Origin: a virus
Lineage: Duplodnaviria > Heunggongvirae > Uroviricota > Caudoviricetes
IMG/VR virus record: IMGVR_UViG_2713896799_000009
Span: 1-37,500 of that record
Reading direction: 5' to 3' (one strand)
Length of the DNA: 37,500 bases
Under the pieces are notes generated by a model that was given only the letters and a program-made list of their open reading frames with translations, had not been told where the DNA came from and made no database searches. Shown in pieces: positions 1 to 36,143 of this stretch. Position 1 is the first letter of the stretch. The number at the start of each line of letters is the position of its first letter. The position numbers were made by a program, and so were the translations under genes.

Positions 1-1122
1 CGCCGCTGCCAGCTCGTTCAGGGTGTCCAGAACTTCCGGCGATGAGCCAACCAGCGCAGCAAGCAGTTTGCGCACAAACGCTGCGTTCGCTGCTTCCAGA
101 CCGGCGGCATCATCCGGTGGGGTTGGGGTGGTTGGGGTGCCGGTGAAGGCCGGGCTGTCCAGTGGCGCTTTTGTTTTCGTTTCGTCCATGACGGCTTTGA
201 CAGCCTTTGGCGTGGCAGCCAGTTCATCGCTGTCGTTGTCCGTATCACTACACAGTTGCACCAGACCTTTTTCTGTCGTGCTGGCATTTGTTTGCATTTC
301 AGGTCATCAACTATCTGCTGCGCCTCATCCCTGTACTGTTTCGCTTCCTGCGCATTGTCTGCACCTGCATCCTGGCTGGCTTTAGCCTGTCGGGCGTATT
401 CGGCGGCACTGTTTTTGTGCCCCAGCGCCGCATTTGCCGACAGTTCTGAACTGGTCGCTGCTGATGATGCGGCATTATGATAAAGGCGGGCGCGTTCGGC
501 GGCATCGACTGATTTCGTCCCGCGCTGTGCCTGATGACTGTGCGCTGTTTTCTGCCTCACCCGCAAAACGTTCCGCATCATCACGGGCCGTTGCGGTTGT
601 CGTCACATCCTGTGCCGTCTGCTGTGCGTTTCCGGCTGCAGCTTCGGCGCTCTGCTGTGTCTGATTTTTTAGCTCTTCTGCCTCATCCTTACTAACCGCC
701 GCAGATGTTGCTGCATTGATTGCATCATCAGCAGCTGTTTCTGCTCTCTCCCTGTCACTGACCACCTGCTCAGACAAGCGAACAACGGTATTTATCATTT
801 CCTCAAAACGCTTCATTACCTCAGGGCGTAAATCACCCTCCTTTGGTGCATCCAGAAAAGCATTCAGCGTATCCGGCTCATCTGTCGGTGCAACATAAAT
901 TTCCCCCGCCTTTACAGGAGGATGCCCTGAGCGGGACAAAAATACATCATAAAATCCCGGCTCAGCATTAATAGTATACCCGCCATCACTTCCCGTAAGA
1001 CAGGTTGCCACAATATTAACCACAACTGTCGGACTGGTTCTTCTGGCACGCAATTCAATCGCACAGTTTACGACAGGCTCACCCGCTCCGTCCTTCAGGA
1101 CACCTGAAATCTTTACTGCCAT
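1..1122 (-). pseudogene. stf: Side tail fibre gene (lambda Stf-like), truncated by the window edge and apparently disrupted by two frameshifts
   Basis: N-terminus MAVKISGVLKDGAGEPV... matches lambda Stf, with ATG at 1122 after a GGGGTG ribosome-binding site. Frame A has in-frame stops at 475-477 and 304-306. Tail-fibre-like Ala/Ser-rich sequence continues in a second frame through about 300-580 and returns to frame A below 300 (KGLVQL...LAATPKAV...LDSPAFTGTP), running off the window. Confidence 0.6.
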
Positions 1123-1130
1123 ATTCACCC

Positions 1131-1160
1131 CACAAAAAAGCCCGCCTGAACCGGCGGGCT
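1131..1160 (-). terminator. Rho-independent terminator downstream of lom
   Basis: Minus strand reads AGCCCGCCGGTTCAGGCGGGCT followed by TTTTTTGT, directly after the lom stop. Confidence 0.6.
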
Positions 1161-1186
1161 GTCATAACACTGTGTTACCTGGCTAA

Positions 1187-1786
1187 TCAGAATTTATAAC
1201 CGACACCCACGATGAAACCGTCAGTGCGCCAGTCACCACTGCCGGAGCCTTCATAAGCAATATCAATGGCCACGGATTCGGTCGGGTTAAACTGCACGCC
1301 AGCCCCCCACGCCAGAGACGTGTTGCTGTGGCGACCGTCATCACTTCCGGTCAGCACATCGTGCGTTTTCCCCTTGTTGTCAGTTACGCGGAGATAATCC
1401 CCGGAGAAAGTCGACACACGGCTGTAAGCCACACCCGCCATCGCATACGCGCTGAACCATTCATTCACGCGCACAGACGGCCCCGCCATTACGCTGAACC
1501 AGCGGTTACGAACGGAATCTTCATGCCAGCGGGTATCACTGTAACGGGTCAGCTGGCGATTCTTGTCTCCTGCATAGCTGAATGACGTCACCATCCCCAG
1601 TGTGTCCGTAAACTCATAACGGTATTTCACGTTAATGCCCTTCAGGTCATCGTTTCCGGGCATATCAGTATGGGACTGAAGATACCCGCCGCTTAGTGTG
1701 GACTGATGCTCTGCTGCACTCGCTGGCGTACCAGCGGCGACCAGCCAGACTACTGCAGACAGAATAACAGCACATAATTTACGCAT
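1187..1786 (-). CDS. lom: Lom/Ail-family outer membrane beta-barrel protein
   Basis: 199 aa with signal peptide; C-terminus IAYEGSGSGDWRTDGFIVGVGYKF is near-identical to lambda Lom; sits between J and stf as in lambda. Confidence 0.9.
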   Translation of the reverse strand: MRKLCAVILSAVVWLVAAGTPASAAEHQSTLSGGYLQSHTDMPGNDDLKGINVKYRYEFTDTLGMVTSFSYAGDKNRQLTRYSDTRWHEDSVRNRWFSVMAGPSVRVNEWFSAYAMAGVAYSRVSTFSGDYLRVTDNKGKTHDVLTGSDDGRHSNTSLAWGAGVQFNPTESVAIDIAYEGSGSGDWRTDGFIVGVGYKF

Positions 1787-1810
1787 AATTACCTCTCGCT
1801 TTTCTGCAAT

Positions 1811-1834
1811 AAAAAAGGCGCCATTTCTGGCGCC
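1811..1834 (-). terminator. Rho-independent terminator downstream of J
   Basis: Minus strand GGCGCCAGAAATGGCGCC followed by a T-run; then GAGAGG ribosome-binding site and the lom ATG. Confidence 0.6.
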
Positions 1835-1853
1835 CGTATTGGGGTTATAAAAT

Positions 1854-4800
1854 TCAGCTGATACTGATACCGGCTGTTGATTTCTTCATCACGACAACAA
1901 GAAGGTCGCTGATACTGGTCGTTGGCGTCCAGTTATTAGCACCATATGAAGAAACATTGAAAGTCAGGGTGACATGCCCGTGTCCGGCAGGCATATCGAT
2001 GACAGATGAAAATACCCTGCTGACATCCGTCGCGGGTTGCTGAAAGATTTCCTGTCCGTTCTTCAGCACCTGCAGCTTACAGGTTGAGTACCAGTATGAC
2101 TGTTGGTTGTTGCTGTTAAAGTTTTCATGCTTACCACCGCGAAACAGAACGGGTGGGATTACTATCTGACGGTCAAAAGCCTGGTCATCGTACACAGTGA
2201 CCGTTATTGTACCGCTGGCATAACTGCCATTTCTCGGAAAGGATTTTCCCACCGTTTTGACAATATCGCCTTCAATCTGATTGGCTGACAGTTTCCCCTT
2301 AATCTGACAGTTCTCATTTATCGTGACGTTGTTGAGCGTCCCGGAGTTCGCATTCACGTTACCGCTGATATCGGCATTTTTAGCGGTCAGCTTTCCGTCC
2401 GGTGTCAGGGAAAATGCAGGAGGATTACCGCCGCTGGTAATGGTGGGAGCCGTCAGATATTTCAGGAACACTTCATTCATGAATATCTGATCACCCTGAC
2501 CAACAAACATCGGTTTTGTGTTGCCATTTGCAGGATTAATCATCGCAATCCTGTCTGCCGCCAGCAGCACCTGACTCTGCATGCCGTCAGGGGTGTTCTC
2601 AATACCGGCACCGATACCCGCAATATAAAGGCGACCATCCTGCATCTGCTGCAGTTTCACGGCCCACATACTGTTCAGGTTATTACTGGTGTCCGTCTGA
2701 ACCTTTTGTATCTGCTGGATGGTGGCCTCCTGATCTCCCAGCTTCTGGTCCGTTGTCGTCATGATTTCACTGCTTTTTTGATCCACATACTGGCGAACCT
2801 GCGCTATCTGGCGTGCATTCTCCTCATTACTCTGACTGACCGTCTGCGTGAGTTCGCTGCTGACGTTATCCACTCTCTGGCTCACCTGTGATATACCCAG
2901 TGACAGCTCATCATTTTTTTTCGCAACCAGCTGTGTGAGGCTGTTTTCTGTCTCCCCGATTTTTTGGGTCACTTCAGCAATATCACTCTCTATCTGCTGA
3001 TTGATCTCATCCTCCAGTTGCTCAACTTCACTGCGCAATGCCGAGGCATTAATACGATCGTTCAGCTCCTGCCCCAGCAGGGTGCTGTTTATTTTCCCTT
3101 CAAAAAAATTGAGATACACCTCAGCATCATTAACCGGCCGGCCGACAGCTTCCACAAACGCTGATTTACCGACGATGTTCACACTGCGGATATAAAAGTA
3201 ATAATCATGGCCCGGCCTGATATTAATACTGGCAGCTGTCCAGTACATCGCCGTACCAAGATAGCGGGCTGTGGTTTCAACCTGCCGGATATCCGTAATC
3301 CGCTTTTCCGAGAACCAGAACTCAAACTGCACCGTCGGGTCATACACCGCAAGACGCGGGACTGCCGTTATCTGAAAATACCCCGGTATCAGTTCAATAG
3401 TGACAGGCGCTGCCGGTGCCGCAATCCGGAACGATACCGACGCCGGATCACCCTGCTGCCCCCGGGCATTTACAGCCCGGACCGTCAGCATATAACGCCC
3501 CAGCGCCAGTTGTCTGAAGCGGTATGTGGTTTCCGTCGTCCGGGCTGTGCTGACCAGCCGCTCACTGCCGTCGTCCGCTGCCACGGTCAGGCGAAGCATG
3601 AAGCTCACGCCCTTCACCACCTTCGGCGTGTCCCAGCGGGCCAGTACCTGATACTCCCCGCTGTCTGCGGTGACTTCGGCGGTAAGGTGCTGCACCGCTG
3701 GCGGTGTGACACCATTCACCGTGCCGCTCTGGTCGCCGTCAAAGTGCGCCCCGTTATCCACGATGGCTTCTTTTTCCGGTACATGCTGCACGGCAGTGAT
3801 GGCATACGTGCCGTCGTCGTTCTCACGGATACTCACGCAGCGGAACAGGCGCTGGCGCAGCGTCGGCAGCTTCAGCCCCCACACGCTGTATTCGGCAACG
3901 CCGTCAGGAACACGGCTCACTTTCACCTTCATGCCGTCGGTGACGGACTGAACCTCCACGCTGACCGGATTGCCATTTCCGTCAACCAGGCTTATCAGCG
4001 TGGTGCCGGAGGATGGCAGCGTGATTTCACGGTCGAGCGTCAGCGTCCGGGTCTGGCTGTTCACCGCCAGCACACGACCACCGGTGCTGATACCGGCATA
4101 GTCATCATCACAGATTTCAATAACATCGCCCGGTACATGGCGAAGCCCTTCGGCACCCACGCTGAAGTCCACGGTCTGCGTTTCCAGCAGTTCCGTTTTA
4201 ATCAGCCACAGCCCGGCGCGGTGCGCCTGCCCCCGGCTGGTACAGCCAAAGGCATCCATCTTCGTGACGTTACGACCGTAACGGGCAATGGCCTGCGTGT
4301 CCTCCACAAGCTCTGTTGCCGTCTCCCAGCCGTTGTCCGGGTCAATCCAGTTCACCTCAACGGCATTATGGCGGTCCTTCAGGGCGCTGAAGCTGTAGCG
4401 GAACGGCGCGCCATCATCCGGCATCACCACATTACTGCGGTTATAGGTCCACACCTTATCTGATGGTCGGTCCTGCACGAACGTCAGCGTCTGCCCGTTC
4501 CATACCGGCATACAGCGCATCGCCGAGCAGAAATCACTGAGCACATCCCACGCCTTGCGCTGTGTGGTCAGGTACGCATTACAGGTGATGCGCGGCTCCG
4601 TGCCGCCAAAACCGTCCGGCACCGACTGATCGCAATGCTGGCCGATGACATACAGCGCCCATTTGTCCACATCCGCCGCACCAAGACGTTTCCCCATGCC
4701 GTAGCGCGGATGGGTCAGCATATCCCACAGACACCAGGCCATGTTGTTGCTGTATGCCGGTTTTAACGTTCCGTCCCAGATACCGCTGTATTGCCGCGTC

Positions 4801-5555
4801 TGCGGGTTATAGTTCGACGGCACCTGCAGAATGCGCCCGCGAAGATGATAATTACGGCTCACCTGCTGGCTGCCGAACTGCTCCGAATCCACCTGTACGC
4901 CGACCAGTGCCGTGTTCGGGTAGCACTGTTTCACATCGATGATTTCGGTGTATGACGACCAGAGCGTTTTGTTCTGCAGCTGGTCTGTGGTGCTGTCCGG
5001 CGTCATCCTGCGCATCCGGATATTGAACGGGCGCGGCGGCAGGTTACCCACCACCACCGAGGCCAGATACTGTGAGGTGGTTTTGCCTTTAATGGTGATG
5101 TCTTTTTCCGTCACCCAGCCACCGTTACGTTGTATCTGAACCAGCAGGCGGACTTCCGACGGATTCCTGTCCCCCTTTGAGGTGGTTTCCACCAGTGCCT
5201 GCACGCCGAAGGTAAAACGCAGTCGGTCAATGTTTGCCGACGTGATGGTCCGGGTGATCGGCGTGTCGTATTTCACTTCCGTACCCAGCACCGTCTCGGA
5301 GCCGGAGGATTCAAATCCCTCCGGCGGTGTCTGCTCCTGCTCGCCTGCCCGGAACACCACCGTGACGCCGGAGATATTGGTATTCCCCTCGCTGTCCAGC
5401 ACCGGCGTACTGTTCAGCAGCACGCTTTTTAATCCATCCACCGGACCTTCAACCGGACCTTCGCTGATGGCATCAATCACACTCAGCAACTGCGTGGACT
5501 TCAGGTTGTCCTTCGCTTCGCGCGGGGTATGCCCCTTACTGCTGCCTTTACCCAT
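1854..5555 (-). CDS. J: Tail tip / host-specificity protein J (central tail fibre)
   Basis: 1233 aa; N-terminus [34 protein letters not shown] matches lambda J closely. Contains a coiled-coil segment about 100 aa longer than lambda J and a diverged C-terminal receptor-binding region. Confidence 0.95.
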
Positions 5556-5615
5556 TCCTCACGCTCCATAAACGACAAAACCGCCCGGAGGCGGTTTCAC
5601 ATAAAACATTTTTCA

Positions 5616-6263
5616 TCAGCGACCAATCACCACAACCTGACCACCATCACCTTCATCTGCCGTGCTGATCTCCTGAGATACCACCCGCGACCCCACACGC
5701 ATTTCACCGTACAGAACGGGCAGAACATTGCCCTGGGCAACCATGTTATCCAGTGACGAGAAATACGTGTTCTGTTTGCCGTTATCTGTACTGGCTGCCG
5801 TGGGCGTCCTGGCTTTCGGTGCCAGCATCTGCGCCACACCACCCAGGATCATACTGGCCCCTGCTGCATACATACCCGATACAGCCGCGGCCCCCAGCCA
5901 GCCCACAGGGTTCCACCATGCCACCGCAATCAGCGCCGCACCCAGCACCGCCTGAAACACACCGCCACTTTTGGCCCCCTCCAGACGCGGAACGATGTGG
6001 ATCACGGCACCATTTGCCAGCGGCTCATTAAGACGGGCAGACAATTCGGTTTCACCTGCATCACGCCCGGCAATCCGTACCTGATACCAGCCGTCACTCA
6101 GTTTCTGACGAAACGCCGGGATCTGCATGGCCAGCGCCCGGATGGCTTCGGCCCCCGTTTTCACTCGAAGGTCGATGCGGCGGCCAAATCGTTGTAAATC
6201 CCCGTAAAGGCAGATGCGTGCCATGCCCGGTGACGCCAGAGGGAGTGTGTGCGTCGCTGCCAT
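5616..6263 (-). CDS. I: Tail assembly protein I
   Basis: MAATHTLPLASPGMARICLYGDLQRFG... matches lambda gpI; start overlaps the end of K as in lambda. Confidence 0.9.
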   Translation of the reverse strand: MAATHTLPLASPGMARICLYGDLQRFGRRIDLRVKTGAEAIRALAMQIPAFRQKLSDGWYQVRIAGRDAGETELSARLNEPLANGAVIHIVPRLEGAKSGGVFQAVLGAALIAVAWWNPVGWLGAAAVSGMYAAGASMILGGVAQMLAPKARTPTAASTDNGKQNTYFSSLDNMVAQGNVLPVLYGEMRVGSRVVSQEISTADEGDGGQVVVIGR

Positions 6264-6913
6264 TTGTCGGTGTACCTCTCTCGTTTGCTCAGTTGTTCAG
6301 GAATATGGTGCAGCAGCTCGCTGTCACCACAGTAAATGGCGGCATGATTCGGCACCGATGAACCAAAACAGCACAGCAGCACATCGCCCGGCTGCGCCGC
6401 TGACAACGGCACCTGATACAGCCCTGTGGCCTCCAGATTATCCAGATAGAGATTCTGACCGTTACGCCACCAGTCATCCTCGCGATGAAAATCCGGCATC
6501 TCAATCCCCGCCAGATGGTAAGCATCCCGGAACAGCGTGTAACAGTCCGTCACCCCGTGCTCAAAGCGCCGCCCGGAAAGATGTGGCACACAGCGGAACT
6601 TGTGAATCGCCCCCCGGCAGACCAGCCACCACGGCAAATCACTCTGCACCTGCAGCCGCCGGTCGGTCTCACTCAGCCAGGGCAGACCACCGGGGTGGCT
6701 GTGGACCAGCGCCACAATCTCACCCTGCATCTCTGCCCGCAGCCAGTCCTCCGGCGACATCCGGAAATACGCCTCCGGCTCACCGGAGATATTCACGCAG
6801 GGAAAATATCTTTCCCCCTCCGGTGTTCTCACCACGAAGCCGCACGACTCCGCTGGCGCACATCGCCGGGCGTGCGCCAGAATCGCTGATTCTGTCTCTG
6901 TCATGGGATTCAC
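6161..6913 (-). CDS. K: Tail assembly protein K (NlpC/P60 and JAB/MPN-like)
   Basis: 250 aa; HSHP motif (EIVALVHSHPGG) and position between L and I match lambda gpK. Confidence 0.9.
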   Translation of the reverse strand: MNPMTETESAILAHARRCAPAESCGFVVRTPEGERYFPCVNISGEPEAYFRMSPEDWLRAEMQGEIVALVHSHPGGLPWLSETDRRLQVQSDLPWWLVCRGAIHKFRCVPHLSGRRFEHGVTDCYTLFRDAYHLAGIEMPDFHREDDWWRNGQNLYLDNLEATGLYQVPLSAAQPGDVLLCCFGSSVPNHAAIYCGDSELLHHIPEQLSKRERYTDKWQRRTHSLWRHRAWHASAFTGIYNDLAAASTFE

Positions 6914-7608
6914 TGCGAAAGTTTGTTAATGGAAAGGAAGCCGCCAAAGTTGCCGACGTTATTGCGAAACTTACAGCCGCTCAGGCATTTGCTGCATTTA
7001 TCCTTCGTGATATCGGACGTCGGCTGATCATATTCATCCGCGACCGCCGGGCCATCATAACCGCACTCATCGCCGCGGTAGATCCAGGTGCAGGTGTTGG
7101 CCAGCATGATGCGCCCCGGAAAAACAGCACCGTCCGTTTCCGTCGGTGTGGACAGCACAAAAGAGGCACTGACCGCGCTCAGTTCGCTGCACTGTTCGAT
7201 GCGCCAGCGGCTGATCACCTCCTGCTCCGGATCGGCGTCACTGTTTCCGTTGACGAAGTTCACCGCATCCAGAAAACGGGCGTAAACCTTACGCCGGACC
7301 ACCGTTCCGCCGACCAGACTCTGCAGATCTTCCGCCATCCCGGTGACCATGCCGTACAGATTAGAGACTTTAAGCGTTGGCCTTGCACTGGCTCCTTTGC
7401 CGTTCATCTCAAATCCGCTTCCCTGAATGGGATAAGCCTGATACTGCCGCCCCTGCCAGGTGACTGGTTCACCTTTTTCGTTCTGCTCATTACAGAAGAA
7501 ATAACGATCTCCGCCGACCTCTGTCAGATCAATTTCCCAGAGCACGACCAGCGCGGATTGCTCCGTTTTAGTGCACTCATTGAGTGTTTCCTGCTGTATA
7601 TCCTGCAT
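6910..7608 (-). CDS. L: Minor tail protein L
   Basis: 232 aa with lambda gpL-like sequence and cysteine cluster (CSKCLSGCKF); positioned between M and K. Confidence 0.9.
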   Translation of the reverse strand: MQDIQQETLNECTKTEQSALVVLWEIDLTEVGGDRYFFCNEQNEKGEPVTWQGRQYQAYPIQGSGFEMNGKGASARPTLKVSNLYGMVTGMAEDLQSLVGGTVVRRKVYARFLDAVNFVNGNSDADPEQEVISRWRIEQCSELSAVSASFVLSTPTETDGAVFPGRIMLANTCTWIYRGDECGYDGPAVADEYDQPTSDITKDKCSKCLSGCKFRNNVGNFGGFLSINKLSQ

Positions 7609-7907
7609 CAGTGAGTGACCTCTTCAAAGGTACAGTTAAAATCGGTATACATGGTATTATCCGAAATGCTCCACTCCCTGCAGACAACCCGGACAGTCCT
7701 GTTGTGTTTTGGCGGACGCCACAAAAAAGCACGAATCCCGGCATGACGGGATAAAAAACTGTCCAGCGCGGCACGGGAATATTCATCTGTGACACGAAAT
7801 ACCGGTTTAAACGTTTTCAGATCCGCATTCAGACCACCAGCCCGTCGCTGTTCATATCCGTCACCAAACTTTACCGTAATAACTGATGGCTTTCGTGTCG
7901 TCTCCAT
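7608..7907 (-). CDS. M: Minor tail protein M
   Basis: FGDGYEQRRAGGLNADLKTF matches the lambda gpM core. Start chosen at the ATG at 7907, preceded by GAGGGG; the ORF track's longer start at 7994 and an ATG at 7964 would overlap the tape-measure gene. Confidence 0.75.
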   Translation of the reverse strand: METTRKPSVITVKFGDGYEQRRAGGLNADLKTFKPVFRVTDEYSRAALDSFLSRHAGIRAFLWRPPKHNRTVRVVCREWSISDNTMYTDFNCTFEEVTH

Positions 7908-7941
7908 CCCCTCACGGGGGATCCAGTTAAAAACTTCAGGC

Positions 7942-10900
7942 TCAGGCACTGTACAATCCTCCATCCCGACGCGATGACTGCATAATTGACACAACCCTGC
8001 TGTCGATCAGATCCACCAGTCCCCTGGCTGAGCGCGCATCTATCTCGCCATTGCTCCCTTGATTCTGAATGCTGATGTGATACACGGGAGAATAAACAAA
8101 TCCACCGCCACCATTCACATTTCCAATGGCCCTGACCCCAAGAGAGCCGTCCGCTGCCCGTGTCAGTGGCATGATTGCTTCAGGCCCGGCCTCGCCCATC
8201 AACCCGGCACCTTTCGCAAAAGCAAAATACGTCGGTGTATCCACAATAGTGTTACTGTAAGCACTCAGATTTGCCGATGTGTAAACACCACCTTTTGCGT
8301 TTGCCACTGCCCCCGAAATCCATCCGCCGACCGTACCAAGCCACCCTCCGGCACCGGAGAGTGATTTCAGTCCGTTAACAATGGCTGCATTCATCAGAAT
8401 TTTTGAAACTTCCCGGAGAACTGAACTCCCCCAGTTCCTCCAGTCCACAACATTCCCGGCCAGTGCATCGGAAATATTTGATACCAGCCCGTCCATCGTG
8501 GAAACGACAGCATCTGCCGCCTGTGAAGCATAATCGGTGGCACTGTCTGCCCAGTTGGTCAGTCCCTCCTGGAGTCCGGCATTCCAGTTATTACGTAAAG
8601 CATCGGCCTTTGCATAATAATCCTGCTGATCGCTGAGACGCTCTTCCAGATATTTTTTATTCAGTTCTTTCTCCTGTTTCCACAGAGCTTCTTCAATTTC
8701 TCCGGCCTGATACTGTCTCAGCAGCTCGTTATTTTTCTGCTCAAACGCCTGCCGGATACTCCACATTTCCTGGAGTCGTTCACGCATCCGTGAGCCTTCA
8801 CCATATCCCAGCAACTGCGCTTCGTCAGATGCCCGGGCACTGGCATTACTGTCCGCCAGACTGCTCTCATACGCAGCAAGCTGCTCACGAATCTTTTTCT
8901 GGTCGATGAGTGCTGCATTCTGCAAAAGCGTTTTTTTCTGCGCTTCTGACAGGGTTGATAATTCGCCCTGACTGACCTGATATTTCATCTTAGCCAGTTC
9001 AGTATTCTGCCCTGCCAGTGCTATTTGTTCTTTTTGCTGTTTAATCAGCCGTTTATAAATATCTTCTGTTTTTTCCGCTTCGGTCTTTTTATGCGCTTTG
9101 GGTTTATTTGCCTGGTTATTTCGCCAGGCATCCAGTGAGTTATTGATATAATTCTGTCTGGCTGTCTGATACGCCTCTCCCACAAAGCCGAGATCATCCG
9201 CAGCATAACCCAGGCGGGCACGCTCACGGGCTTCCCCCTTCAGGCGGGACAGAGCCAGTTCGCGCTCACTGTTATTCAGTGCGGTCTGCTGTTTATCATC
9301 CAGGGTTGCCTGTGGTAGCCGTAACGGTACATTCACCAGCCCCTGTCGCTGCTGAAGTAATTCATTACCGAGCCCGAGAAGGCGATTAAACTCGGTATGC
9401 TGCCCATTCATGATCAACAGGGACTGATACGCTTTGTTTTGTTCCGCGGCCTGTTGACGGATCAACGCCACCCGTCGCTCCTCCAGCCCGGCAAGCACAT
9501 CCTGAATGGATTGCGCTTTGCCCTGCATTTGTGTGAGACGGGACTGTTCAACTGCCAGTTGATTTGTTGCTTCTGCAAGCCCTTCTGTGACAGTTTTTAC
9601 CGACGTCATGTGGTTAATCATAAAACCGTTATCGGTTGTCCAGCCCGGGTTTGCCAGCACATACTGATAGCCAGCAATTTTTTCCTGTAAGGATTTAATC
9701 TTACTTTTCTGCTCGTCAATTAACCTGTTTTGCTCATCAAGTGCCTGCCGCGTCTTTTCCTCATTATCTGACGCTTCAGGAAGCGACATTGCCGACGTTT
9801 TCTGGCGAATTTCGTCGATTGTTGCGGCATACTGGCGTGCAGATTCTCTGGCCTGCTCCTGATTCTGATACATCGTGTACCAGGCCGTCGCCCCCAGCAT
9901 GACGAGTCCCGGCACACCACCAACCAACCCCAGCGCACCACTTAACAGACGACTCCCCACTGACGTGACAGTATTCAGCGTTGTCTGTGCCGCTGTTCTG
10001 GCCGCAATATTACGGGTAAGTGACGCCTGGGCAGCTGTCAGCTTCGCTTCTGCTGCGGCCTGCCTTTCGGTACCGCGAGCAGCAACAACCGCCTGTTGCG
10101 CACGATAAACCGCCGCACGCGCCCTGGCGGTTGCTATCTGTGTCCCCCGAAGTTGCGCTTCAGCAAGAGCCACTTCGTTTCTGGCTGCAGTAATTAATCC
10201 GGCAGTTGCAGATCCAGCAGACGACGCCATATTGCCAAAATATCGGGCTACCCCGACGGCAACCAGTGCGCCAGCTGCAGCAGCCACGGTATCCATATTG
10301 TCTGCAACACCATTCAACACCCCGGTGAGTGTCTTTGTCACTCCGCTTGCCTCGTTCGCACCACCAACCCAGGCCATAAAGGCGTTTTCAACTTTGGTTG
10401 CAGAGGATGAAACAGTATCAGGCATTGCTGCATATTCATCACGCAACGCCCCAAGCTGACTAATCAGTGCAGGAACAACCTTATCGGCGGTCAGTTTTCC
10501 GTTATCCGCCATGGCCTTCAGATCCTTACGGGCAACACCCATTCCCGCAGCCAGCGCACGAATAACACGATCGCCGTTCTCATTCACAGAGTTAAATTCT
10601 TCACCGCGCAGCACTCCCTGCGCCAGTGCCTGACTGAACTGCGTGATCACCGAACTGGCTTCTGCTGTACTGGCACCGGATAATTTCAGGCCCGTGGAGA
10701 TCGCCTCGGTGACTTTCAGTACCTCCTCAGAACTGTAGCCATACTCCCGCATGGAAGCTGCAGAGCGGGCAAAAAGGCTGGCGTTATCAGAAAACGCCGT
10801 TCCCGTTCTCTGGCTGATTGCCATTAATTCACGTTGTGATACCTGAAAATCATCACTGGACTGTGAAGCCTGCTTCAGACGGGCATTTACTGAATTCCAC

Positions 10901-11175
10901 TCATCGGCGAGAGAAATAAGATGACCGGTAGCAAAAGCCCCGGCAAATGCCCCCGCCATGTTCAGTGCCGAAGATTTAGCTGTATTTATCTGATCCGTCA
11001 CTTCTGCCAGTGCACGCCGCATTTCACGGGATGCAGCAGCGGACTGCCGGCCTCCGTTCTGCATGGTACGGTAGTAATCCTGCCCCATACGCGAAGCCCG
11101 GGAGATCTCTGACTGGAATGACCGGGAATTTGCCGAGATTTTAATAATCAGTTCACGTAATGTCGCCACACTCAT
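7942..11175 (-). CDS. H: Tail tape measure protein (lambda H analogue)
   Basis: 1077 aa, Ala/Gln-rich coiled-coil with glycine-rich hydrophobic segments; lies between G-T and M. Confidence 0.9.
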   Translation of the reverse strand: MSVATLRELIIKISANSRSFQSEISRASRMGQDYYRTMQNGGRQSAAASREMRRALAEVTDQINTAKSSALNMAGAFAGAFATGHLISLADEWNSVNARLKQASQSSDDFQVSQRELMAISQRTGTAFSDNASLFARSAASMREYGYSSEEVLKVTEAISTGLKLSGASTAEASSVITQFSQALAQGVLRGEEFNSVNENGDRVIRALAAGMGVARKDLKAMADNGKLTADKVVPALISQLGALRDEYAAMPDTVSSSATKVENAFMAWVGGANEASGVTKTLTGVLNGVADNMDTVAAAAGALVAVGVARYFGNMASSAGSATAGLITAARNEVALAEAQLRGTQIATARARAAVYRAQQAVVAARGTERQAAAEAKLTAAQASLTRNIAARTAAQTTLNTVTSVGSRLLSGALGLVGGVPGLVMLGATAWYTMYQNQEQARESARQYAATIDEIRQKTSAMSLPEASDNEEKTRQALDEQNRLIDEQKSKIKSLQEKIAGYQYVLANPGWTTDNGFMINHMTSVKTVTEGLAEATNQLAVEQSRLTQMQGKAQSIQDVLAGLEERRVALIRQQAAEQNKAYQSLLIMNGQHTEFNRLLGLGNELLQQRQGLVNVPLRLPQATLDDKQQTALNNSERELALSRLKGEARERARLGYAADDLGFVGEAYQTARQNYINNSLDAWRNNQANKPKAHKKTEAEKTEDIYKRLIKQQKEQIALAGQNTELAKMKYQVSQGELSTLSEAQKKTLLQNAALIDQKKIREQLAAYESSLADSNASARASDEAQLLGYGEGSRMRERLQEMWSIRQAFEQKNNELLRQYQAGEIEEALWKQEKELNKKYLEERLSDQQDYYAKADALRNNWNAGLQEGLTNWADSATDYASQAADAVVSTMDGLVSNISDALAGNVVDWRNWGSSVLREVSKILMNAAIVNGLKSLSGAGGWLGTVGGWISGAVANAKGGVYTSANLSAYSNTIVDTPTYFAFAKGAGLMGEAGPEAIMPLTRAADGSLGVRAIGNVNGGGGFVYSPVYHISIQNQGSNGEIDARSARGLVDLIDSRVVSIMQSSRRDGGLYSA

Positions 11176-11185
11176 TCTCCGGACG

Positions 11186-11207
11186 AAAAAAAACCGCCGA
11201 AGCGGTT
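11186..11207 (-). terminator. Intra-operon rho-independent terminator between G-T and the tape-measure gene
   Basis: Minus strand AACCGCTTCGGCGGTT followed by TTTTTTTCG, then GGAG and the H start codon. Confidence 0.5.
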
Positions 11208-11215
11208 ATGTTGAC

Positions 11216-22391: not shown

Positions 22392-22607
22392 TTACTCTCC
22401 CCGTGCAGCCTTACGCTTGTCTTCTCTGATTTTGAAGTACAGATTTGTCAGATAAGTCAGGAAGCCCAGAACCAGACTCCCAAGTACACCAATCGCAGCC
22501 CACTGTGACGGACTGACCTGATCAAGCCACTGTAAAAACCAGTAGCCAGCACTGCCTGCGGAGGTGCCGTAGGCAATGCCCGTTGAAATTTTGTCCATGG
22601 ATTTCAT
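22392..22607 (-). CDS. S: Pinholin (phage 21 S21-like), dual-start motif
   Basis: 71 aa, [29 protein letters not shown]..., essentially the phage 21 S sequence; Met1 and Met4 give antiholin/holin starts. Confidence 0.9.
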
Positions 22608-22899: not shown

Positions 22900-22974
<75 letters not shown>

Positions 22975-22977
22975 ATA

Positions 22978-23053
<76 letters not shown>

Positions 23054-23055
23054 AC

Positions 23056-23132
23056 TGGACCGCCACCGGGGACTCGAACCTCGCACACTCAACTTAAAGG
23101 GTTGACGCTCTTTCCTGATGAGCTAGTGGCGG
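23056..23132 (-). tRNA. tRNA-like element (anticodon-position TTT, Lys-like), possibly a pseudo-tRNA
   Basis: Acceptor CCGCCAC/GTGGCGG, T-loop TTCGAGT, encoded CCA; but C at position 33 and a mismatch in the T-stem. Confidence 0.35.
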
Positions 23133-23133
23133 T

Positions 23134-23209
23134 TGGTGGCCCTTGCTGGATTTGAACCAGCGACCTGGCGATTATGAGTCGCTCGCTCTCACCACTGAGC
23201 TAAAGGGCC
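23134..23209 (-). tRNA. ileZ: tRNA-Ile2 (CAT anticodon, ileX/ileZ-like; tools often label it tRNA-Met)
   Basis: GGCCCTTTAGCTCAGTGGTGAGAGC...CTCATAA...GGTTCAAATCCAGCAAGGGCCACCA is near-identical to E. coli tRNA-Ile2. Confidence 0.8.
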
Positions 23210-23353: not shown

Positions 23354-23473
23354 AAGTTGTGTGGCGAAGCGACCACTCTTAACAGATTAAGATAGTTTTT
23401 GCGTACGCGTTAGTGATTTTTTCATAATTATCTGTATCCTGTGGCTATTTCTCTTGCGCAAAGGATGCTTTTG

Positions 23474-24352
23474 ATGACGCAGCAACTCGAAAACATGCCA
23501 ATAACAGAAATCGAAATTGCCTACGGTGGAGAGGCATACGCAGATAATCAGATCGACGCGAAAACATTAGGCGAAGCCTTAACCTCTCTTAGTGCCCTGA
23601 TTGAACACGCCGAAAAAATAATTAATGGCGAAACAGCAGAGCCGAAAGTCAACATCAAGGCAACAAAAGAAGGTTCATTTACTTTGCTTGTTGCTGTGAT
23701 GGGGAGCATAAAAACTATTAACGCCCTTGGCCTCGTTGCAGGTGGTGGAGTTGCCGCAGGTGGCGTACTCGGGATAATCGAATGGCTCAAAGGGCGTAAA
23801 ATCAGCTCCATTGTCGTCGATGAACAAAAAGATACAGCAGAAATCGAAGTGGATGGTGAGAAGGTTAAATGCAGTAACGACATTCAAAAATTAATAACCA
23901 GTCCAATCATCCGAAAAGAACTGGATAAATTAATCTATAAACCCCTGCAGACTGAAAAACCATCCACGTTCTCAGTTTCACAGCAGAAGCATAAGGTAGT
24001 CAGGGTGACGCAAGCTGAAGCAGTAAGTTTTAAAACTGCAAAATCCACCTTTGTCGAGAAAACGCACGTAACGACACGCCAAGCTAATGTACATTTTGCT
24101 AATGTTCGATTCAAGCAAGGCAAAAGCTGGGATATCATCCTGCCAAATGGCGAAGAAGTTAGCGCATCTATGAAAGATGAGGCTTTTCTTGAACGGGTTG
24201 AACACAACCAAGCAGCATTCTGTAAGGGTGATCTTTTTGTTGTAGAACTGACAGAAACAACAAAAGAAACAAATGGCGCGCTGTCTAAACCACGCTATAG
24301 TATTACTAAGGTTATACGCCACAGAGCGGCGGCAGATAGGAAACTACTTTAA
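23474..24352 (+). CDS. Hypothetical membrane-associated protein, first gene of a three-gene cargo cassette
   Basis: AAGGA seven nucleotides before the ATG (MTQQLENMPITEIEIAYGG...); about 292 aa; central hydrophobic, glycine-rich segment (LLVAVMGSIKTINALGLVAGGGVAAGGVLGII); no homologue recognised; GC noticeably lower than flanking phage genes. Confidence 0.6.
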   Translation: MTQQLENMPITEIEIAYGGEAYADNQIDAKTLGEALTSLSALIEHAEKIINGETAEPKVNIKATKEGSFTLLVAVMGSIKTINALGLVAGGGVAAGGVLGIIEWLKGRKISSIVVDEQKDTAEIEVDGEKVKCSNDIQKLITSPIIRKELDKLIYKPLQTEKPSTFSVSQQKHKVVRVTQAEAVSFKTAKSTFVEKTHVTTRQANVHFANVRFKQGKSWDIILPNGEEVSASMKDEAFLERVEHNQAAFCKGDLFVVELTETTKETNGALSKPRYSITKVIRHRAAADRKLL

Positions 24353-27151: not shown

Positions 27152-27219
27152 AAGTGCGGGTGCGTTGAGGATGCCTGACACATCAGAGGTGGCGAGGGAT
27201 TTCTCCCCCGCCAGGTCTC

Positions 27220-27375
27220 TTACTCCTCAGGTTCGTAAGCTGTGAAGACAGCGACCTCCGTCTGGCCGGTTCGGATTCGTACCTCGCAGAGGTCTTTCCT
27301 CGTTACCAGTGCCGTCACTATGACGGTTAAACAGATGACGATCAGGGCGATTAACATCGCCTTTTGCTGCTTCAT
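27220..27375 (-). CDS. hokD: Hok/Gef-family type I toxin (HokD/RelF-like)
   Basis: MKQQKAMLIALIVICLTVIVTALVTRKDLCEVRIRTGQTEVAVFTAYEPEE matches RelF/HokD as recalled; an in-frame upstream extension to 27432 corresponds to a mok-like frame. Confidence 0.85.
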   Translation of the reverse strand: MKQQKAMLIALIVICLTVIVTALVTRKDLCEVRIRTGQTEVAVFTAYEPEE

Positions 27376-27999
27376 AGCCTGCTTCTCCTTGCCTTTCGGC
27401 ACGTAAGAGGCTAACCTAGATTTGCCGTTCATAGATTGAGCCTCAGATTAATGTTAAGCGTCTTGTAGGACGCGTAATGTTAACTGGGGCTTTTCTCTAT
27501 CTGCCTTTGGTGTTCATGCCTGAGACAGATAGCCTCAAGCACCCGCAGCCATTCTACTTAACTCCCGTTACCTCGCCAATATAAAATCAATCAGAAAGGC
27601 GATCCATAAGAACAACAGCAAGACAATAAATTGCCATTACAGCTGCAATAGCCAGCGCACATTTGAGAACCAGCACGACAACCTCCTGTATTGGACGTAC
27701 ACCAGTCCTGATAAATATGAGGCTGTCTCATCATTGATGAGATACAACTATTGGGTATAGTTTCTGTGATTTTGTTCTGTAGAAATGGAACACAACAACC
27801 AGTCACCACCAGCACTTCTTTAAATACGCCAAGTCCGACGCAAGCTAACCTTCTAGTCCGCTTTGAGCGAAAAGCAGACTGTCACGCGTTGAAGTTAATT
27901 GTATTACTTAGATAAACACTATCATTTTCCTGACGTTAAGTTGTATCTTTGATAGGATTAAAAAACGTATAGATAGCTTATGCTACTGAGGGAATAAAA

Positions 28000-28809
28000 A
28001 TGACGAAAATTAGTGAACGATGGAAGCACAATGGCATTACTGAAGGTTATTGCAATATTTGTGGGAAATATGGCTTGCTCACAAAAGATCATGTTCCTCC
28101 AAAGTGCGCCATAACCTTAGGCCCTGTTTTGCAGAAAACAGTTAGCGAATTTTTTGGTATTCAGGAACCAGTTAAACCATTAAATGCTAAAAATGGCTCT
28201 TATTTCAGAACCATTTGCAGCCACTGTAACAATAAGGTATTAGGTGGGCTCGATGTTGCAATTGAAAATGTAACAAAGTCCTTTAAAGAACAGTTAAGTC
28301 GATATATGAATGGTATGAATGTATATCCATTCATTAGAATACCTTTTGATAGCATATCTTTCACTAAGGCTATGATTGGGCACGTGCTATCAGCAACTTC
28401 AGTTGAAGATTGTAAAAAAGAACCCGTAGATAGCCCCTTCTATACACCTTTAAAGGATTATGTTTTGGGTAAAAATTCAAGTTTTGAGGAAACTCATGAT
28501 ATTTACTACTGGTTTTACCCACACAGAATGCACATATCCGCTCAAAGTGTAGCATTTATGAACGAAGGACATGTGGCATTTATTTGTGCTTTACATTTTT
28601 TTCCTATCGGTTTTATTATCACAATGAAAAATGAAGGAACATACCCTGCCCACTCTACAAAATTAGAACTTGAAGATAAATTCCTTACATTTAATATGAC
28701 CTCTATAAATTATGAGTATACGACATTTCCATTTGTAAATCTTAAGGGAAACCAAATGTATGCGATAAGCAACGGTCATACTTGTGTGAGTTATCCAATA
28801 ATTAAGTGA
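28000..28809 (+). CDS. Hypothetical protein with N-terminal HNH-like nuclease motif and an unrecognised C-terminal domain
   Basis: 269 aa; GAGGGAA ribosome-binding site; motif C-x2-C...DH-VPPK...N...C-x-H-C-N-N-K in the first 80 aa; about 190 aa of C-terminus without recognisable similarity; AT-rich gene and promoter region unlike the flanking DNA. Confidence 0.6.
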   Translation: MTKISERWKHNGITEGYCNICGKYGLLTKDHVPPKCAITLGPVLQKTVSEFFGIQEPVKPLNAKNGSYFRTICSHCNNKVLGGLDVAIENVTKSFKEQLSRYMNGMNVYPFIRIPFDSISFTKAMIGHVLSATSVEDCKKEPVDSPFYTPLKDYVLGKNSSFEETHDIYYWFYPHRMHISAQSVAFMNEGHVAFICALHFFPIGFIITMKNEGTYPAHSTKLELEDKFLTFNMTSINYEYTTFPFVNLKGNQMYAISNGHTCVSYPIIK

Positions 28810-28955
28810 CGGCTAAATCATACAATCTACGCATGTTCACTTTCTACATATACCATCTATAATGTCCGCTGTTGGCACAAAGCGGACAACCACGCTAGCT
28901 CTACCCTGTGCCACAAAATGTCAATTTGCATCTGAACTAATGCACTTTAATCTCG

Positions 28956-29378
28956 TCACTTCAATAAATACCGAACATCACCCTGATAAAACGACAATAT
29001 GCGCTGCATAACTTCACTCTTCCGGCACTCGCGACAGATTATGTTCTGACGCCTGTCGTAGCGACGTATTTCTCCGTCAGGTAATGACCAGATAAGGTCC
29101 GGATCAACCGCAGATGGTTTCTTCAGCTTTGCCCTTGAGAGCTTTTTACGGGCATTTTGCCAGTCCTTACGCGCCTGTTCAGACGGGAATAACCCGTAAC
29201 CAGAGTTGTATACATCGCCGCTGGCAACCAGCTCTCTTGCGAGAACGCTCATCAGATATCTTGTCGCACCTGTCTTGACTTCCAGTTGCCGTAACGTCTC
29301 ACGCCCACTCTGGCGTACGAGTTCAACAACCTGTCCTTTAATTTTTTCCCGCTCTTCTTGTGTAAAAACTTTTGCCAC
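28956..29378 (-). CDS. Hypothetical replication-region protein
   Basis: 140 aa, basic, with C-terminal CRECRK motif; directly downstream of the O-like gene; not recognised. Confidence 0.45.
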   Translation of the reverse strand: MAKVFTQEEREKIKGQVVELVRQSGRETLRQLEVKTGATRYLMSVLARELVASGDVYNSGYGLFPSEQARKDWQNARKKLSRAKLKKPSAVDPDLIWSLPDGEIRRYDRRQNIICRECRKSEVMQRILSFYQGDVRYLLK

Positions 29379-29418
29379 AAGCCCTCCTGAAAATTACCTC
29401 ATGACCAGAAATTAACAC

Positions 29419-30495
29419 TTACCCCCTGAAGCCCGGCGGAATTTCGTTATCCGGTTCAGAAATATGATTCACACAACGCTGGTTGTTCGTGCCGCTTACC
29501 GGGAGCAACCAGGGGTTCTCAAAATTCCGGTCCGGTCCAAAAAACGTCGTCGCTCGCTGAACAAATTCCGTTCCCGTTTTCCCGGTAGCCGCCAAGTATC
29601 TTGCGTAACGCCTCACGCCATCCAGCATGGCTTCTGGTGGCACCCCCTCGCGTAATCTGGCCTTCCAGGCACTGAAAGCGGATTTCTTCGGGTTTGCTCC
29701 GGCACGCAACGGGTACTCCCGCCAGACCTGTTCGAACACATCCGGATAATCCACTCGTCCCACAGACTGCCCGGTGTTTTCCGGGACTACCCGATCGGCT
29801 TCCCGCTGAATGGCGGAATCGGCTTCGGGCTGCTGCAGTTGGTGTGATTGCTCCGGCCTTGCGGTCATCACCTGCTGCACAGCGCCCGAATCGGCTTTCA
29901 GCGCATACGCTGAATCGGCTTCCGGTGTCGTGCCTGCTGGCTGACCAAGATTGACGGTCTGAACATCCCCTGCCTGGTTCGTGGCGTTTTTTACGCCATG
30001 GACCATAGTGTTTTGATCTTCTTGATCTGTATCTTTATCTGTATCTTTATCTGTCGTGACTCGTCGTGACATGTGCGTGACATTTCGTGACGCGCCGTGA
30101 CAATCGCCATTTTGTTCCCGCTTTCTTTCCCTCTCTCGCTGCGCCCTCTTGCGCTCTGCAGGAGATTTTGCGGTTTGCGAAATATTGCCGTTGTCCTCTT
30201 TAAGCACCTGGCGTTTTTCCCATCCAGTGATTAAATCACCATCAAGTACCCGCCCCTGCATCGTCTGCAAAATTGAATCAATTACCTCTTCTGTCACGTC
30301 GAGCGCACTTGCCAAATCTTCTGTCGTGACATCAATGTGACCTCGCGTGACATTTCGTGACGCGCTCACCAGGAGGTGGATATACACTGCCATCACTGTT
30401 GCAATTGGCTGCCCTGACACTCTGGCAATTGTTCGCCACTTAGGGTCATTTGGCATGTCATGCCATAATCTGAGCCAGGCGTTAGCCATACTCAC
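29419..30495 (-). CDS. Putative replication initiator (lambda O-like) containing the origin iterons
   Basis: 358 aa; lies where O sits in a lambdoid early-right operon; contains two clusters of helically phased CGTGAC repeats and an AT-rich repeat block; the protein shows matching ASRNVT repeats. Confidence 0.6.
   Translation of the reverse strand: MSMANAWLRLWHDMPNDPKWRTIARVSGQPIATVMAVYIHLLVSASRNVTRGHIDVTTEDLASALDVTEEVIDSILQTMQGRVLDGDLITGWEKRQVLKEDNGNISQTAKSPAERKRAQRERERKREQNGDCHGASRNVTHMSRRVTTDKDTDKDTDQEDQNTMVHGVKNATNQAGDVQTVNLGQPAGTTPEADSAYALKADSGAVQQVMTARPEQSHQLQQPEADSAIQREADRVVPENTGQSVGRVDYPDVFEQVWREYPLRAGANPKKSAFSAWKARLREGVPPEAMLDGVRRYARYLAATGKTGTEFVQRATTFFGPDRNFENPWLLPVSGTNNQRCVNHISEPDNEIPPGFRG
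30015..30361. repeat. Putative replication origin: iteron clusters and AT-rich direct repeats inside the O-like gene
   Basis: CGTGAC five times at about 10-11 bp spacing (30055-30101) and four times (30325-30361); identical 21-mer GCGTGACATTTCGTGACGCGC at 30075-30095 and 30345-30365; AT-rich TCTGTATCTTTATC repeats at 30015-30054. Confidence 0.6.
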
Positions 30496-30559
30496 CTCTT
30501 CTGATACCGAATCTTTTACTCACGAGTTGCCGGAAGCGATTCGATATGGCTATTATCAC

Positions 30560-30985
30560 TCAATGCACTGCCACAGCATTTCCTGCCGGGCCACCACGGT
30601 TCATCTGATTGAAACCGGCGATTGCCACTGCGACAAAATCATCAGCGTCTCTCACCAGTCGCTCCCGCGTCTCCACCAGCTCCCGAAAATAAGCTGAACT
30701 GTGGCTGCGCATTCTGGCCACCAGCAAAGGTGGCATTGCCTTTTCGATCGCTGGTAACAACGCCTGAATTTTTTCAACTGCATCAGGGGTGTCTTTCTCT
30801 ACCCAGCGGAAAATTTTCTGGGTATTGCGAGCCAGGGCTTCCGGATGGCTGTCGTCATACAGTTCTGGGAACGTCATACCCAGTTCAAAATAAGCCCTGG
30901 TTATTTCAGCTGCCGGAACTTTTTCACCGTCCGGATGCGCCCAGGCATTCATCGCCATGCGGATGTGTTCATGCTTGATTTTCAT
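30560..30985 (-). CDS. YdaT-like protein (CII position in the early-right operon)
   Basis: 141 aa; second gene after the repressor-divergent promoter; resemblance to Rac YdaT from recall and genomic position. Confidence 0.55.
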   Translation of the reverse strand: MKIKHEHIRMAMNAWAHPDGEKVPAAEITRAYFELGMTFPELYDDSHPEALARNTQKIFRWVEKDTPDAVEKIQALLPAIEKAMPPLLVARMRSHSSAYFRELVETRERLVRDADDFVAVAIAGFNQMNRGGPAGNAVAVH

Positions 30986-31250
30986 GAATCAAGCTCCTAG
31001 AAAGTGGTTGTGTTAACGTTTTGGTATCTTCCAGCTCGGGCCAAATATTCATCCAATCAAAAGGCCTTAGTTGCTGACGTGTAACTTCACCATTACTGGC
31101 TCGCTCAATAAGGACACATAACGATGCCCCTAACACTTGACCTTTACTCAATGCCTTTCTTAGATAACCGATGCTGGTACCACACTCGCATGCAAACATA
31201 CGCTGTTCATCTGACGAAAGAGAATTGAGAAATATTCTTAATTCTTCCAT
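30969..31250 (-). CDS. Cro-like HTH regulator (YdaS-like)
   Basis: 93 aa; AAGGAG ribosome-binding site; first gene divergent from the repressor; helix-turn-helix-like segment (CGTSIGYLRKALSKG) and IERASNGEV motif. Confidence 0.6.
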   Translation of the reverse strand: MEELRIFLNSLSSDEQRMFACECGTSIGYLRKALSKGQVLGASLCVLIERASNGEVTRQQLRPFDWMNIWPELEDTKTLTQPLSRSLIHENQA

Positions 31251-31278
31251 AGCTACTCCTTAGTAAACACAGTAAAGA

Positions 31279-31322
31279 ATACCCACAGGTAAACAAAAGT
31301 CAATACCCACAGGTTGTTTACC
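31279..31322. promoter_or_regulatory. Putative right operator: two copies of ATACCCACAGGT with an inverted GGTAAACA/TGTTTACC pair
   Basis: Direct repeats at 31279-31290 and 31303-31314 in the 100-bp divergent intergenic region between the cro-like and repressor genes. Confidence 0.5.
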
Positions 31323-31350
31323 TTGCGGTAATCGCATCTATTATTTACCT

Positions 31351-31770
31351 ATGGACAAATATGAATTTAGACGACAGCAACTCATCAAAATTCGTGATGA
31401 GAAATGCGATGGTAAAGCGGTTAACGTGGCCAGAAAGATCGGGCGCGAGCCTTCTTATGTATCAAGAATGTTGTACCCAGAGGGGAAAAAGGGAAAAAAA
31501 CGGATCGCTGATGATATGGTGGAGATTATCGAAGAGTCCTTTGGGTTACCCCGGGGATGGATGGATGGTATCGTTTCATCATCAACGAACACAGCCTCCA
31601 GTTATGAAACAAGGGTTCTAACGCCACGACAACGTATTTTTTTAGATCTCTTAGACGAACTGCCAGAAAGTGAAGCGGATAACTTATTAAAAACTCTTGA
31701 AGAGAAAAAACAGTATTACAATATGATCTACGAAGAAATCCGTAAAAAGAAAGCACAAAACGCATCATAG
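31351..31770 (+). CDS. dicA: DicA-like prophage repressor
   Basis: 139 aa; N-terminal helix-turn-helix region (VNVARKIGREPSYVSRML); C-terminal LPESEADNLL...EE resembles the DicA C-terminus; divergent from the cro-like gene. Confidence 0.65.
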   Translation: MDKYEFRRQQLIKIRDEKCDGKAVNVARKIGREPSYVSRMLYPEGKKGKKRIADDMVEIIEESFGLPRGWMDGIVSSSTNTASSYETRVLTPRQRIFLDLLDELPESEADNLLKTLEEKKQYYNMIYEEIRKKKAQNAS

Positions 31771-31812
31771 CTCACCAAACAACTAGTCACCAGTTAAGAC
31801 ACCGCAAAAAGT

Positions 31813-31850
31813 TACCCATGGGTATTTACTTTTTAAATACCTATGGGTAT
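31813..31850. promoter_or_regulatory. Putative left operator: perfect palindrome TACCCATGGGTA plus a near-repeat ATACCTATGGGTAT
   Basis: 12-bp perfect palindrome at 31813-31824 sharing the TACCCA half-site with the right operator; lies upstream of the plus-strand early-left genes. Confidence 0.45.
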
Positions 31851-32035
31851 CCTTCTTTTCATACCAACCCACCCCGCCCCACAGAATGCAGGGCAATACT
31901 TCGAGTTACCAGGCAGTGGTCAGGGGTTAAGTAGCCAGCCCGAGGCGTAAGAACATGACGGCAGGGTTCAACTTTAATAACTATGCAGCAGGTTTTTGTT
32001 CCGCTACCCCGGCGTTAAGGGGAAATGAGGTCAGC

Positions 32036-32191
32036 ATGGATACTATCGATCTTGGCAACAGCGAATCTCTGGTATGTGGCGTGTTCCCCAACCAGGACGG
32101 TACGTTCACCGCGATGACGTATACCAAAAGCAAAACGTTTAAAACCGAAAATGGTGCCCGTCGCTGGCTGGAAAGAAACTCAGGTGAGTGA
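32036..32191 (+). CDS. ydfA: YdfA-like small protein (51 aa)
   Basis: MDTIDLGNSESLVCGVFPNQDGTFTAMTYTKSKTFKTENGARRWLERNSGE with GAGG ribosome-binding site; resembles Qin YdfA from recall. Confidence 0.7.
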   Translation: MDTIDLGNSESLVCGVFPNQDGTFTAMTYTKSKTFKTENGARRWLERNSGE

Positions 32192-32192
32192 T

Positions 32193-32321
32193 ATGGATTT
32201 CGACACAATCATGGAAAAGGCTTACGAAGAATACTTCGAAGGTCTTGCCGAAGGCGAAGAAGCTCTCAGCTTCAACGAATTTAAACAGGCGCTTTCCAGT
32301 TCGGCAAAATCTAACGGCTGA
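32193..32321 (+). CDS. ydfB: YdfB-like small protein (42 aa)
   Basis: MDFDTIMEKAYEEYFEGLAEGEEALSFNEFKQALSSSAKSNG, translated by hand; below the track's size cut-off. Confidence 0.6.
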   Translation: MDFDTIMEKAYEEYFEGLAEGEEALSFNEFKQALSSSAKSNG

Positions 32322-32350
32322 TAAGCGAAACAGCACCGCGAGGAATCAGT

Positions 32351-32569
32351 ATGCAGAAACGAGAACCCGTCATCATCGCGCCAGACTATACCGATGATGA
32401 ACTTTATGAGTGGATGCACCAGAAAATTAATGCAGCGCAGGATCTGAAATGGGCCAATGAAGCCAGGGCTAAGCAGGCTGAAAATCTGTCCGCTCTGGAG
32501 CAGGATATCACTAATCTGGAAAAAGCAGCGGCATTAAGCATTGCCAGAATGATTACATACCCGCGTTAA
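32351..32569 (+). CDS. ydfC: YdfC-like protein (72 aa)
   Basis: 72 aa ORF in the ydfA-ydfB-ydfC-dicF-dicB gene order. Confidence 0.65.
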   Translation: MQKREPVIIAPDYTDDELYEWMHQKINAAQDLKWANEARAKQAENLSALEQDITNLEKAAALSIARMITYPR

Positions 32570-32910
32570 TAGCTAACCAACGAAGCTAAGGTTGGTAATT
32601 AAGGAGTTCTCCACGGGTGAGGTGGAGTGCGTGCGCCGGACACGGGTGAGCATCCGGCACTGACAGTTTACTGAAAGGATATTTCCCTGAAAAGTCAGAC
32701 CATAACGCGAAAGCGCACGGCGAGGTAGCTGGTTCATAGATAGCCTGTCGTTAAATTTTCGTCGACCGTGCGCTTCCGGTTGTGGCAATCCGCGAAATGG
32801 CGCGGCGGTAAGTATGGCGGGGTTATTCCTTCCCCCGTTGAGGACACCGGGTTGTCAGGTTGACCATACGCTTAAGTGACAACCCCGCTGCAACGCCCTC
32901 TGTTATCAAT

Positions 32911-32968
32911 TTTCTGGTGACGTTTGGCGGTATCAGTTTTACTCCGTGACTGCTCTGCCGCCCTTTTT
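32911..32968 (+). ncRNA. dicF: DicF small regulatory RNA
   Basis: TTTCTGGTGACGTTTGGCGGTATCAGTTTTACTCCGTGACTGCTCTGCCGCCCTTTTT matches the E. coli DicF sequence as recalled, including the 3' terminator hairpin; located between ydfC and dicB. Confidence 0.75.
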
Positions 32969-36079: not shown

Positions 36080-36143
36080 TGTTCAATCCCGGTCGTCGAC
36101 CACCAGCTATAGTGGCGGCGACCATGATTAGCGAACGACGCTC

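Follow-up and report, generated by a model that had tools for sequence, protein, structure and literature searches.

The prophage and its side tail fibre gene

The window (the whole stretch of DNA that was analysed, 37,500 nt) comprises a nearly complete lambdoid prophage with an HK97-like head, located at the very start of contig LFZJ01000001.1. Its tail genes are encoded on the minus strand. I (5616-6263, minus strand) is followed by J (1854..5555, minus strand), which encodes the tail tip or central fibre protein of 1233 aa, and by lom (1187..1786, minus strand), which encodes an Ail/Lom outer-membrane protein of 199 aa. Both J and lom are intact; the J DNA is identical to that of a sister prophage in another genome (L010, GCA_036679865.1), and the exact Lom protein is on record in many genomes. 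The 5' part of the side tail fibre gene, stf, occupies the terminal 1.12 kb (1..1122, minus strand). Between lom and stf there is an intrinsic-terminator-like hairpin with a T-run (1139..1160, minus strand), at a place where a ‘terminator’ is annotated in phages mEp460 and Ayreon. The order J, lom, stf on the minus strand is shared with lambda and with the relatives of this prophage.

The stf reading frame starts at the ATG at 1122, preceded by the ribosome-binding site GGGGTGAAT, and begins with ‘MAVKISGVLKDG...’ (minus strand). Residues 1-134 match positions 1-134 of the 134-position profile PF08400 (phage_tail_N; E = 1.9e-42, 144.9 bits with a cutoff of 26.6), and residues 6-45 of the translated window 1-297 (minus strand) match PF03406 (Phage_fiber_2; E = 1.4e-15). 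Over its first 115 aa the protein shares 53% identity with lambda orf-401, the fibre-repeat region is 56% identical to lambda over 52 aa, and the segment ‘TNALAGKQP...’ aligns with the start of lambda orf-314. The profile matches, the identity to orf-401 and the gene order bear out the initial annotation of the gene as a lambda-type stf that follows J and lom.

In lambda, stf lies in the same place, after J, lom and the terminator (Ur-lambda stf; in laboratory lambda, NC_001416, it is represented by orf-401 and orf-314). The C-terminal half of the protein (~440-696 in L010), however, has no similarity to that of lambda Stf, and the downstream gene in the relatives encodes a DUF4376 protein of 190-195 aa, which is not of the Tfa type encoded by lambda orf-194. 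From its position, the DUF4376 protein is presumed to be the fibre chaperone. Judged by sequence, the window gene belongs to the lambda Stf family, but its receptor-binding end and presumed chaperone both differ from those of lambda, a combination that is common in E. coli prophages. Proteins of 696 aa from such prophages (WP_484082820.1 from strain N96; WP_065226736.1 from 06-00048) have genes with 97-99% DNA identity to the window over 1.2 kb and with the same J-lom-stf-DUF4376 order.

At the other end of the prophage, an integrase ORF (36370-37500) reaches the right window edge. In relatives (L010, 12770-20600; L024, 13603-15432) the integrase adjoins ompW, and the stf/DUF4376 end adjoins an ORF6N gene, yciE/F/G and trpA. 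Therefore, the prophage occupies the ompW-yciE interval. A row of four tRNA genes occupies the late-gene strand (22900-23209, minus strand) just upstream of the lysis genes. They are Gly-TCC, Thr-TGT, Lys-TTT and a tRNA with the anticodon CAT, which is called Met by ARAGORN and tRNA-Ile in the RefSeq relative TUM1880. Rfam matches were found to the sok antitoxin RNA (27370-27544, minus strand, 110 bits) and to the DicF sRNA (32912-32963, plus strand, 76.7 bits). In relatives, the sok site has a hokD-like gene next to it, and just downstream of the DicF site come dicB/ydfD homologues, which makes the early region Qin/Rac-like. An ORF of ~292-303 aa (23441-24352, plus strand), located between the tRNA cluster and the Q antiterminator region, runs opposite to the late genes; its counterpart in TUM1880 is annotated as a ‘LAPAL motif-containing putative phage structural protein’, and both place and orientation are odd for a structural protein.

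The tail assembly chaperone pair (11216-11904, minus strand) consists of Phage_TAC_1 (11518-11904) and Phage_tail_T (11216-11506). Lambda-like phages have a genuine programmed -1 frameshift at this pair; the canonical lambda G/T slippery heptamer GGGAAAG was searched for at the junction and is not there. Long plus-strand ORFs at 3207-4463 (418 aa) and 6214-7614 (466 aa), antisense to J and to the K/L tail genes, resemble the annotated antisense orf206b inside lambda stf, and are probably by-products of codon bias rather than genes. The plus-strand ORFs at 23-385, 207-449, 256-480 and 434-664 are antisense to conserved Stf coding sequence and were rejected as unsupported.

Reading frames and extra bases in stf

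The initial annotation described an stf gene read in alternating frames on the minus strand, and the frames and stop positions that it gave are present in the sequence. Frame A is open from 1122 to a TAA at 475-477, and later stops in this frame include TGA TGA at 307-309 and 304-306. A second frame, frame B, carries the tail-fibre-like sequence ‘...SVDAAERARLYHNAASSAATSSE...QQIVDDL’. This Stf-like part extends only from ~512 to 298, and not from about 580 to 300 as first described, although the frame-B ORF itself spans 18-584. Frame A is Stf-like again from ~296 to position 1 (‘NASTTEKGLVQLCSDTDNDSDELAATPKAVK...PEVLDTLNELAAA’), and the regained segment reads ‘...NASTTEKGLVQL...LNELAAA’ up to the window edge. 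Taken as real, the deposited sequence would yield a product of 215 aa, of which the last 11 (SRCRRTRPPLS) are out of frame.

Three intact RefSeq homologues, which encode 696 aa each and carry the annotation ‘prophage tail fiber N-terminal domain-containing protein’, were aligned with the minus strand of window 1-1200. The alignment and a base-by-base comparison revealed not two frameshifts, as had been proposed, but three single-base insertions, each changing AA to AAA on the coding (minus) strand. At insertion 1 (513..515, minus strand) the window has GACGAAATCAG where all relatives have GACGAATCAG, and reading moves from frame A to frame B; the TAA at 475..477 is the first in-frame stop, 13 codons past this insertion in frame A. 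At insertion 2 (297..299, minus strand) the window has CTGAAATGC and the relatives CTGAATGC, and at insertion 3 (291..293, minus strand) it has TGCAAACAAATG and the relatives TGCAACAAATG. Together, insertions 2 and 3 restore frame A. They fall in one alignment stretch (CTGAAATGCAAACAAATG in the window, CTGAATGCAACAAATG in the relatives, with two extra A's), and look like one shift because they are only 4 nt apart.

The shifts had also been called compensating. This holds as arithmetic, as +1+1+1 amounts to one extra codon, but a ribosome would halt at 475-477. Full-length Stf could be made from such a gene by recoding, either through programmed ribosomal frameshifting or through transcriptional slippage at the A runs, which we consider vanishingly improbable. 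The single argument for recoding is that the three shifts total one codon and sit at A runs. All homologues, however, are single-frame and lack the extra bases, and neither a conserved two-frame layout nor a slippery site was found among them; AAA runs are also too short for slippage. Programmed frameshifting was rejected on the ground that the homologues are single-frame.

Comparison with relatives

The three A's are the sole difference between the window and the sister prophage L010 over 11,200 nt, with 0 substitutions. When the three bases are deleted, the 1.12-kb segment comprises 373 codons, and the translation agrees at 373/373 positions with the N-terminal 373 aa of the L010 Stf, an intact protein of 696 aa. 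Compared with four other intact homologues, the repaired translation is identical at 365-370 of 373 positions, so that identity to the 696-aa E. coli prophage proteins is 365-373/373 overall. Unlike the window, the genes of these proteins have none of the three additional A's, and their annotation is that of intact genes.

To place the insertions in context, the whole window was scanned for private indels against all fetched loci, an indel being private when every relative with ≥97% identity disagrees with it. Additional genomes that had been brought in by the terminase match (a very common protein, 15,892 blocks) served as controls. In 1-22400, where 4-11 relatives with ≥97% identity were available, the only isolated window-private indels are those at 293, 297 and 515; the 21.9 kb beyond the first 515 nt contain 0. 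With uniform placement, the chance of all three events falling in the first 515 of 22,400 nt is (515/22400)^3 ~ 1e-5. The allele with the insertions is absent from 9/9 related loci. A further group of private indels, at 22463-22521, is alignment noise from a mosaic junction where the window also has private substitutions. The right-hand 15 kb is a weaker control, with relatives of only 96-98% identity whose indels lie in diverged or intergenic stretches; across 27200-37500 there is no indel compared with L024. The other phage genes in the window, including J, lom and the head, tail, lysis and integration genes, have lengths equal to those of the relatives.

A 311-nt query over the three sites matched 21 RefSeq E. 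coli records, and in 21/21 of them the best-matching stretch is 308 nt long and below 99% identity, so that none of the 21 has the insertions. Each carrying genome holds 3-8 copies of the segment (median 5), with 92-98% identity. An exact look-up of the truncated products, of 215 aa with an ATG start and 217 aa with a GTG start, found none on record. A pattern scan tolerating up to one additional base at each of sites 2 and 3 gave no match in species-representative genomes and a single metagenome match, which lacks insertions 2 and 3; one match is too few to add much.

The middle stf segment (window 250-560) is present in 20 of 5426 complete E. coli genomes, in 3-8 copies each, and most of the carriers come from cattle, from food or from STEC-type sources. 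It seems that the module for the fibre shaft spreads between lambdoid prophages that reside together. With a 25-kb query, the match ends at window 1081, ~40 nt into stf, for most matching E. coli prophages. Window ~1081 looks like a recombination junction inside conserved 5' stf sequence, at the border of a common tail module and a rarer fibre module.

In two relatives, L009 (GCA_047262175.1) and L011 (GCA_047261955.1), stf is interrupted at ~10909-13314, equivalent to window ~877-889. An IS21-family element with istA/istB-like genes lies near codon 80, and an IS66-family element further downstream. These interruptions are real stf knock-outs, unlike the three A's in the window.

Origin and meaning of the insertions

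The exact Lom protein match also retrieved locus L012, from the same contig as the window (LFZJ01000001.1, assembly GCA_001264215.1). L012 matches window 1-11200 with 100% identity and extends just 1 nt further than window position 1, so that the window edge is a contig end and stf runs off it; no gene is called on the contig beyond lom. All three insertions lie within 515 nt of this end. LFZJ00000000 is the draft genome of the E. coli STEC/ETEC hybrid strain IH57218, which was sequenced with PacBio RS continuous long reads only (P4/C2 chemistry), and assembled into 17 contigs by HGAP pre-assembly, PacBioToCA and Celera Assembler 7.0 (PMC4551483). The words ‘Quiver’ and ‘Illumina’ are absent from the text of the source paper and polishing is unmentioned, a silence that does not prove that none was done (PMC4551483). 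Optical mapping revealed a misassembled area in the genome, which contains 17 prophage regions (PMC4551483). The raw PacBio reads are deposited as SRA study PRJNA269579.

Working from the assembled sequence, we infer that the three A's are very probably consensus errors at the thinly covered, repeat-bounded end of an apparently unpolished PacBio contig. The underlying gene would be an ordinary lambda-type stf, carrying three AA to AAA insertion errors in the last 515 nt of a PacBio-CLR-only, Celera-assembled contig. Insertions are the dominant error of raw PacBio continuous long reads. The contig stops inside stf, in a segment that would be repeated in several lambdoid prophages of the same genome, and we attribute the break to this repetition because the segment is present in 3-8 copies per carrying genome. 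Here the assembler may have run out of uniquely placed reads, so that the terminal consensus would rest on few reads. The three bases are most likely absent from the real DNA, and the living strain most likely has an intact stf encoding a 696-aa Stf, followed by the DUF4376 gene.

Errors in long-read assemblies are mostly short homopolymer-associated indels, which falsely pseudogenise genes (PMC12007338). The window resembles long-read-only assemblies in that its changes are single-base and homopolymer-associated, cause false frameshifts and premature stops, and are detectable against close references (PMC12007338). It differs in that the changes affect runs of just 2 to 3 bases and are clustered at one contig end instead of spread through the assembly. 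The features of an artefact are present: single-base indels that extend homopolymers, an error-prone platform without reported polishing, and clustering at a contig end. The initial annotation had left open a pseudogene or sequencing errors at two sites. The second of these is favoured by insertions that are private, extend homopolymers and lie at a contig end with 0 substitutions relative to L010, but the sites number three. Some points weigh against an artefact. The runs are very short, 2 to 3 bases and not long homopolymers; even at the end of a contig, three errors within ~220 nt make for a high local rate; and real stf frameshifts are known (laboratory lambda), and prophage genes decay.

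A variant of the artefact is a chimeric consensus from a collapsed repeat, in which paralogous stf copies of IH57218 were merged and the indels arose by mis-alignment. The 3-8 segment copies with 92-98% identity in carrying genomes, the 17 prophage regions of IH57218 (PMC4551483) and the contig end in the conserved ‘LNELAAA’ part of stf all speak for such a merger. A mix of diverged copies should, however, bring substitutions, and the terminal 1.1 kb equals L010 except for the three A's, which makes this origin very improbable.

We regard it as unlikely that the gene is a real pseudogene, in which three independent +A insertions in the IH57218 stf leave a 215-aa N-terminal fragment and particles without side fibres. 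The extra bases are present in the deposited sequence, stf is dispensable and was lost by frameshift in laboratory lambda (PMC12617516), and in L009 and L011 this stf has genuinely been inactivated by elements of the IS21 and IS66 families. Yet a pseudogene requires three like insertions within 225 nt, set against 0 substitutions in 11.2 kb compared with L010, and once the first frameshift was in place, nothing would have selected for the remaining ones. None of the three is more than 515 nt from the end of a contig from an apparently unpolished long-read assembly, and the allele is in no other record (0/21 RefSeq records, 0/9 loci, 0/1 metagenome match). Other signs of relaxed constraint, such as substitutions or mixed lesion types, are absent, all lesions being +A. 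Were the insertions real, for which we see a small chance, they would constitute a very recent stf knock-out by clustered homopolymer insertions in an otherwise pristine prophage, 11.2 kb of which is base-identical to that of another strain. The cluster might then have come from local error-prone repair or from recombination at the repeated stf segment.

The defect had been thought to bear on whether the prophage can still make infectious particles, but its weight is small either way. Laboratory lambda lacks side fibres through an stf frameshift and is fully viable, the fibres merely speeding adsorption (PMC12617516). A real stf defect would therefore say little on infectivity, as laboratory lambda also lacks Stf by frameshift. 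In laboratory lambda and in the deposited window sequence alike, stf is split by a frameshift; the stf frameshift of lambda PaPa is a real, experimentally established mutation (PMC12617516), whereas the shifts in the window are very probably errors of the consensus. Should the lesions be real, the prophage would yield Stf-less, J-only particles, like laboratory lambda, and the consequence would be modest, side fibres being dispensable in lambda (PMC12617516).

The disruption is most probably not a real feature of the prophage, and there are no grounds for calling the prophage tail-fibre-defective. The tail-fibre status of the prophage as deposited is unfit for judging its viability, and genes that sit at the ragged ends of unpolished long-read contigs ought not to be counted as pseudogenes.
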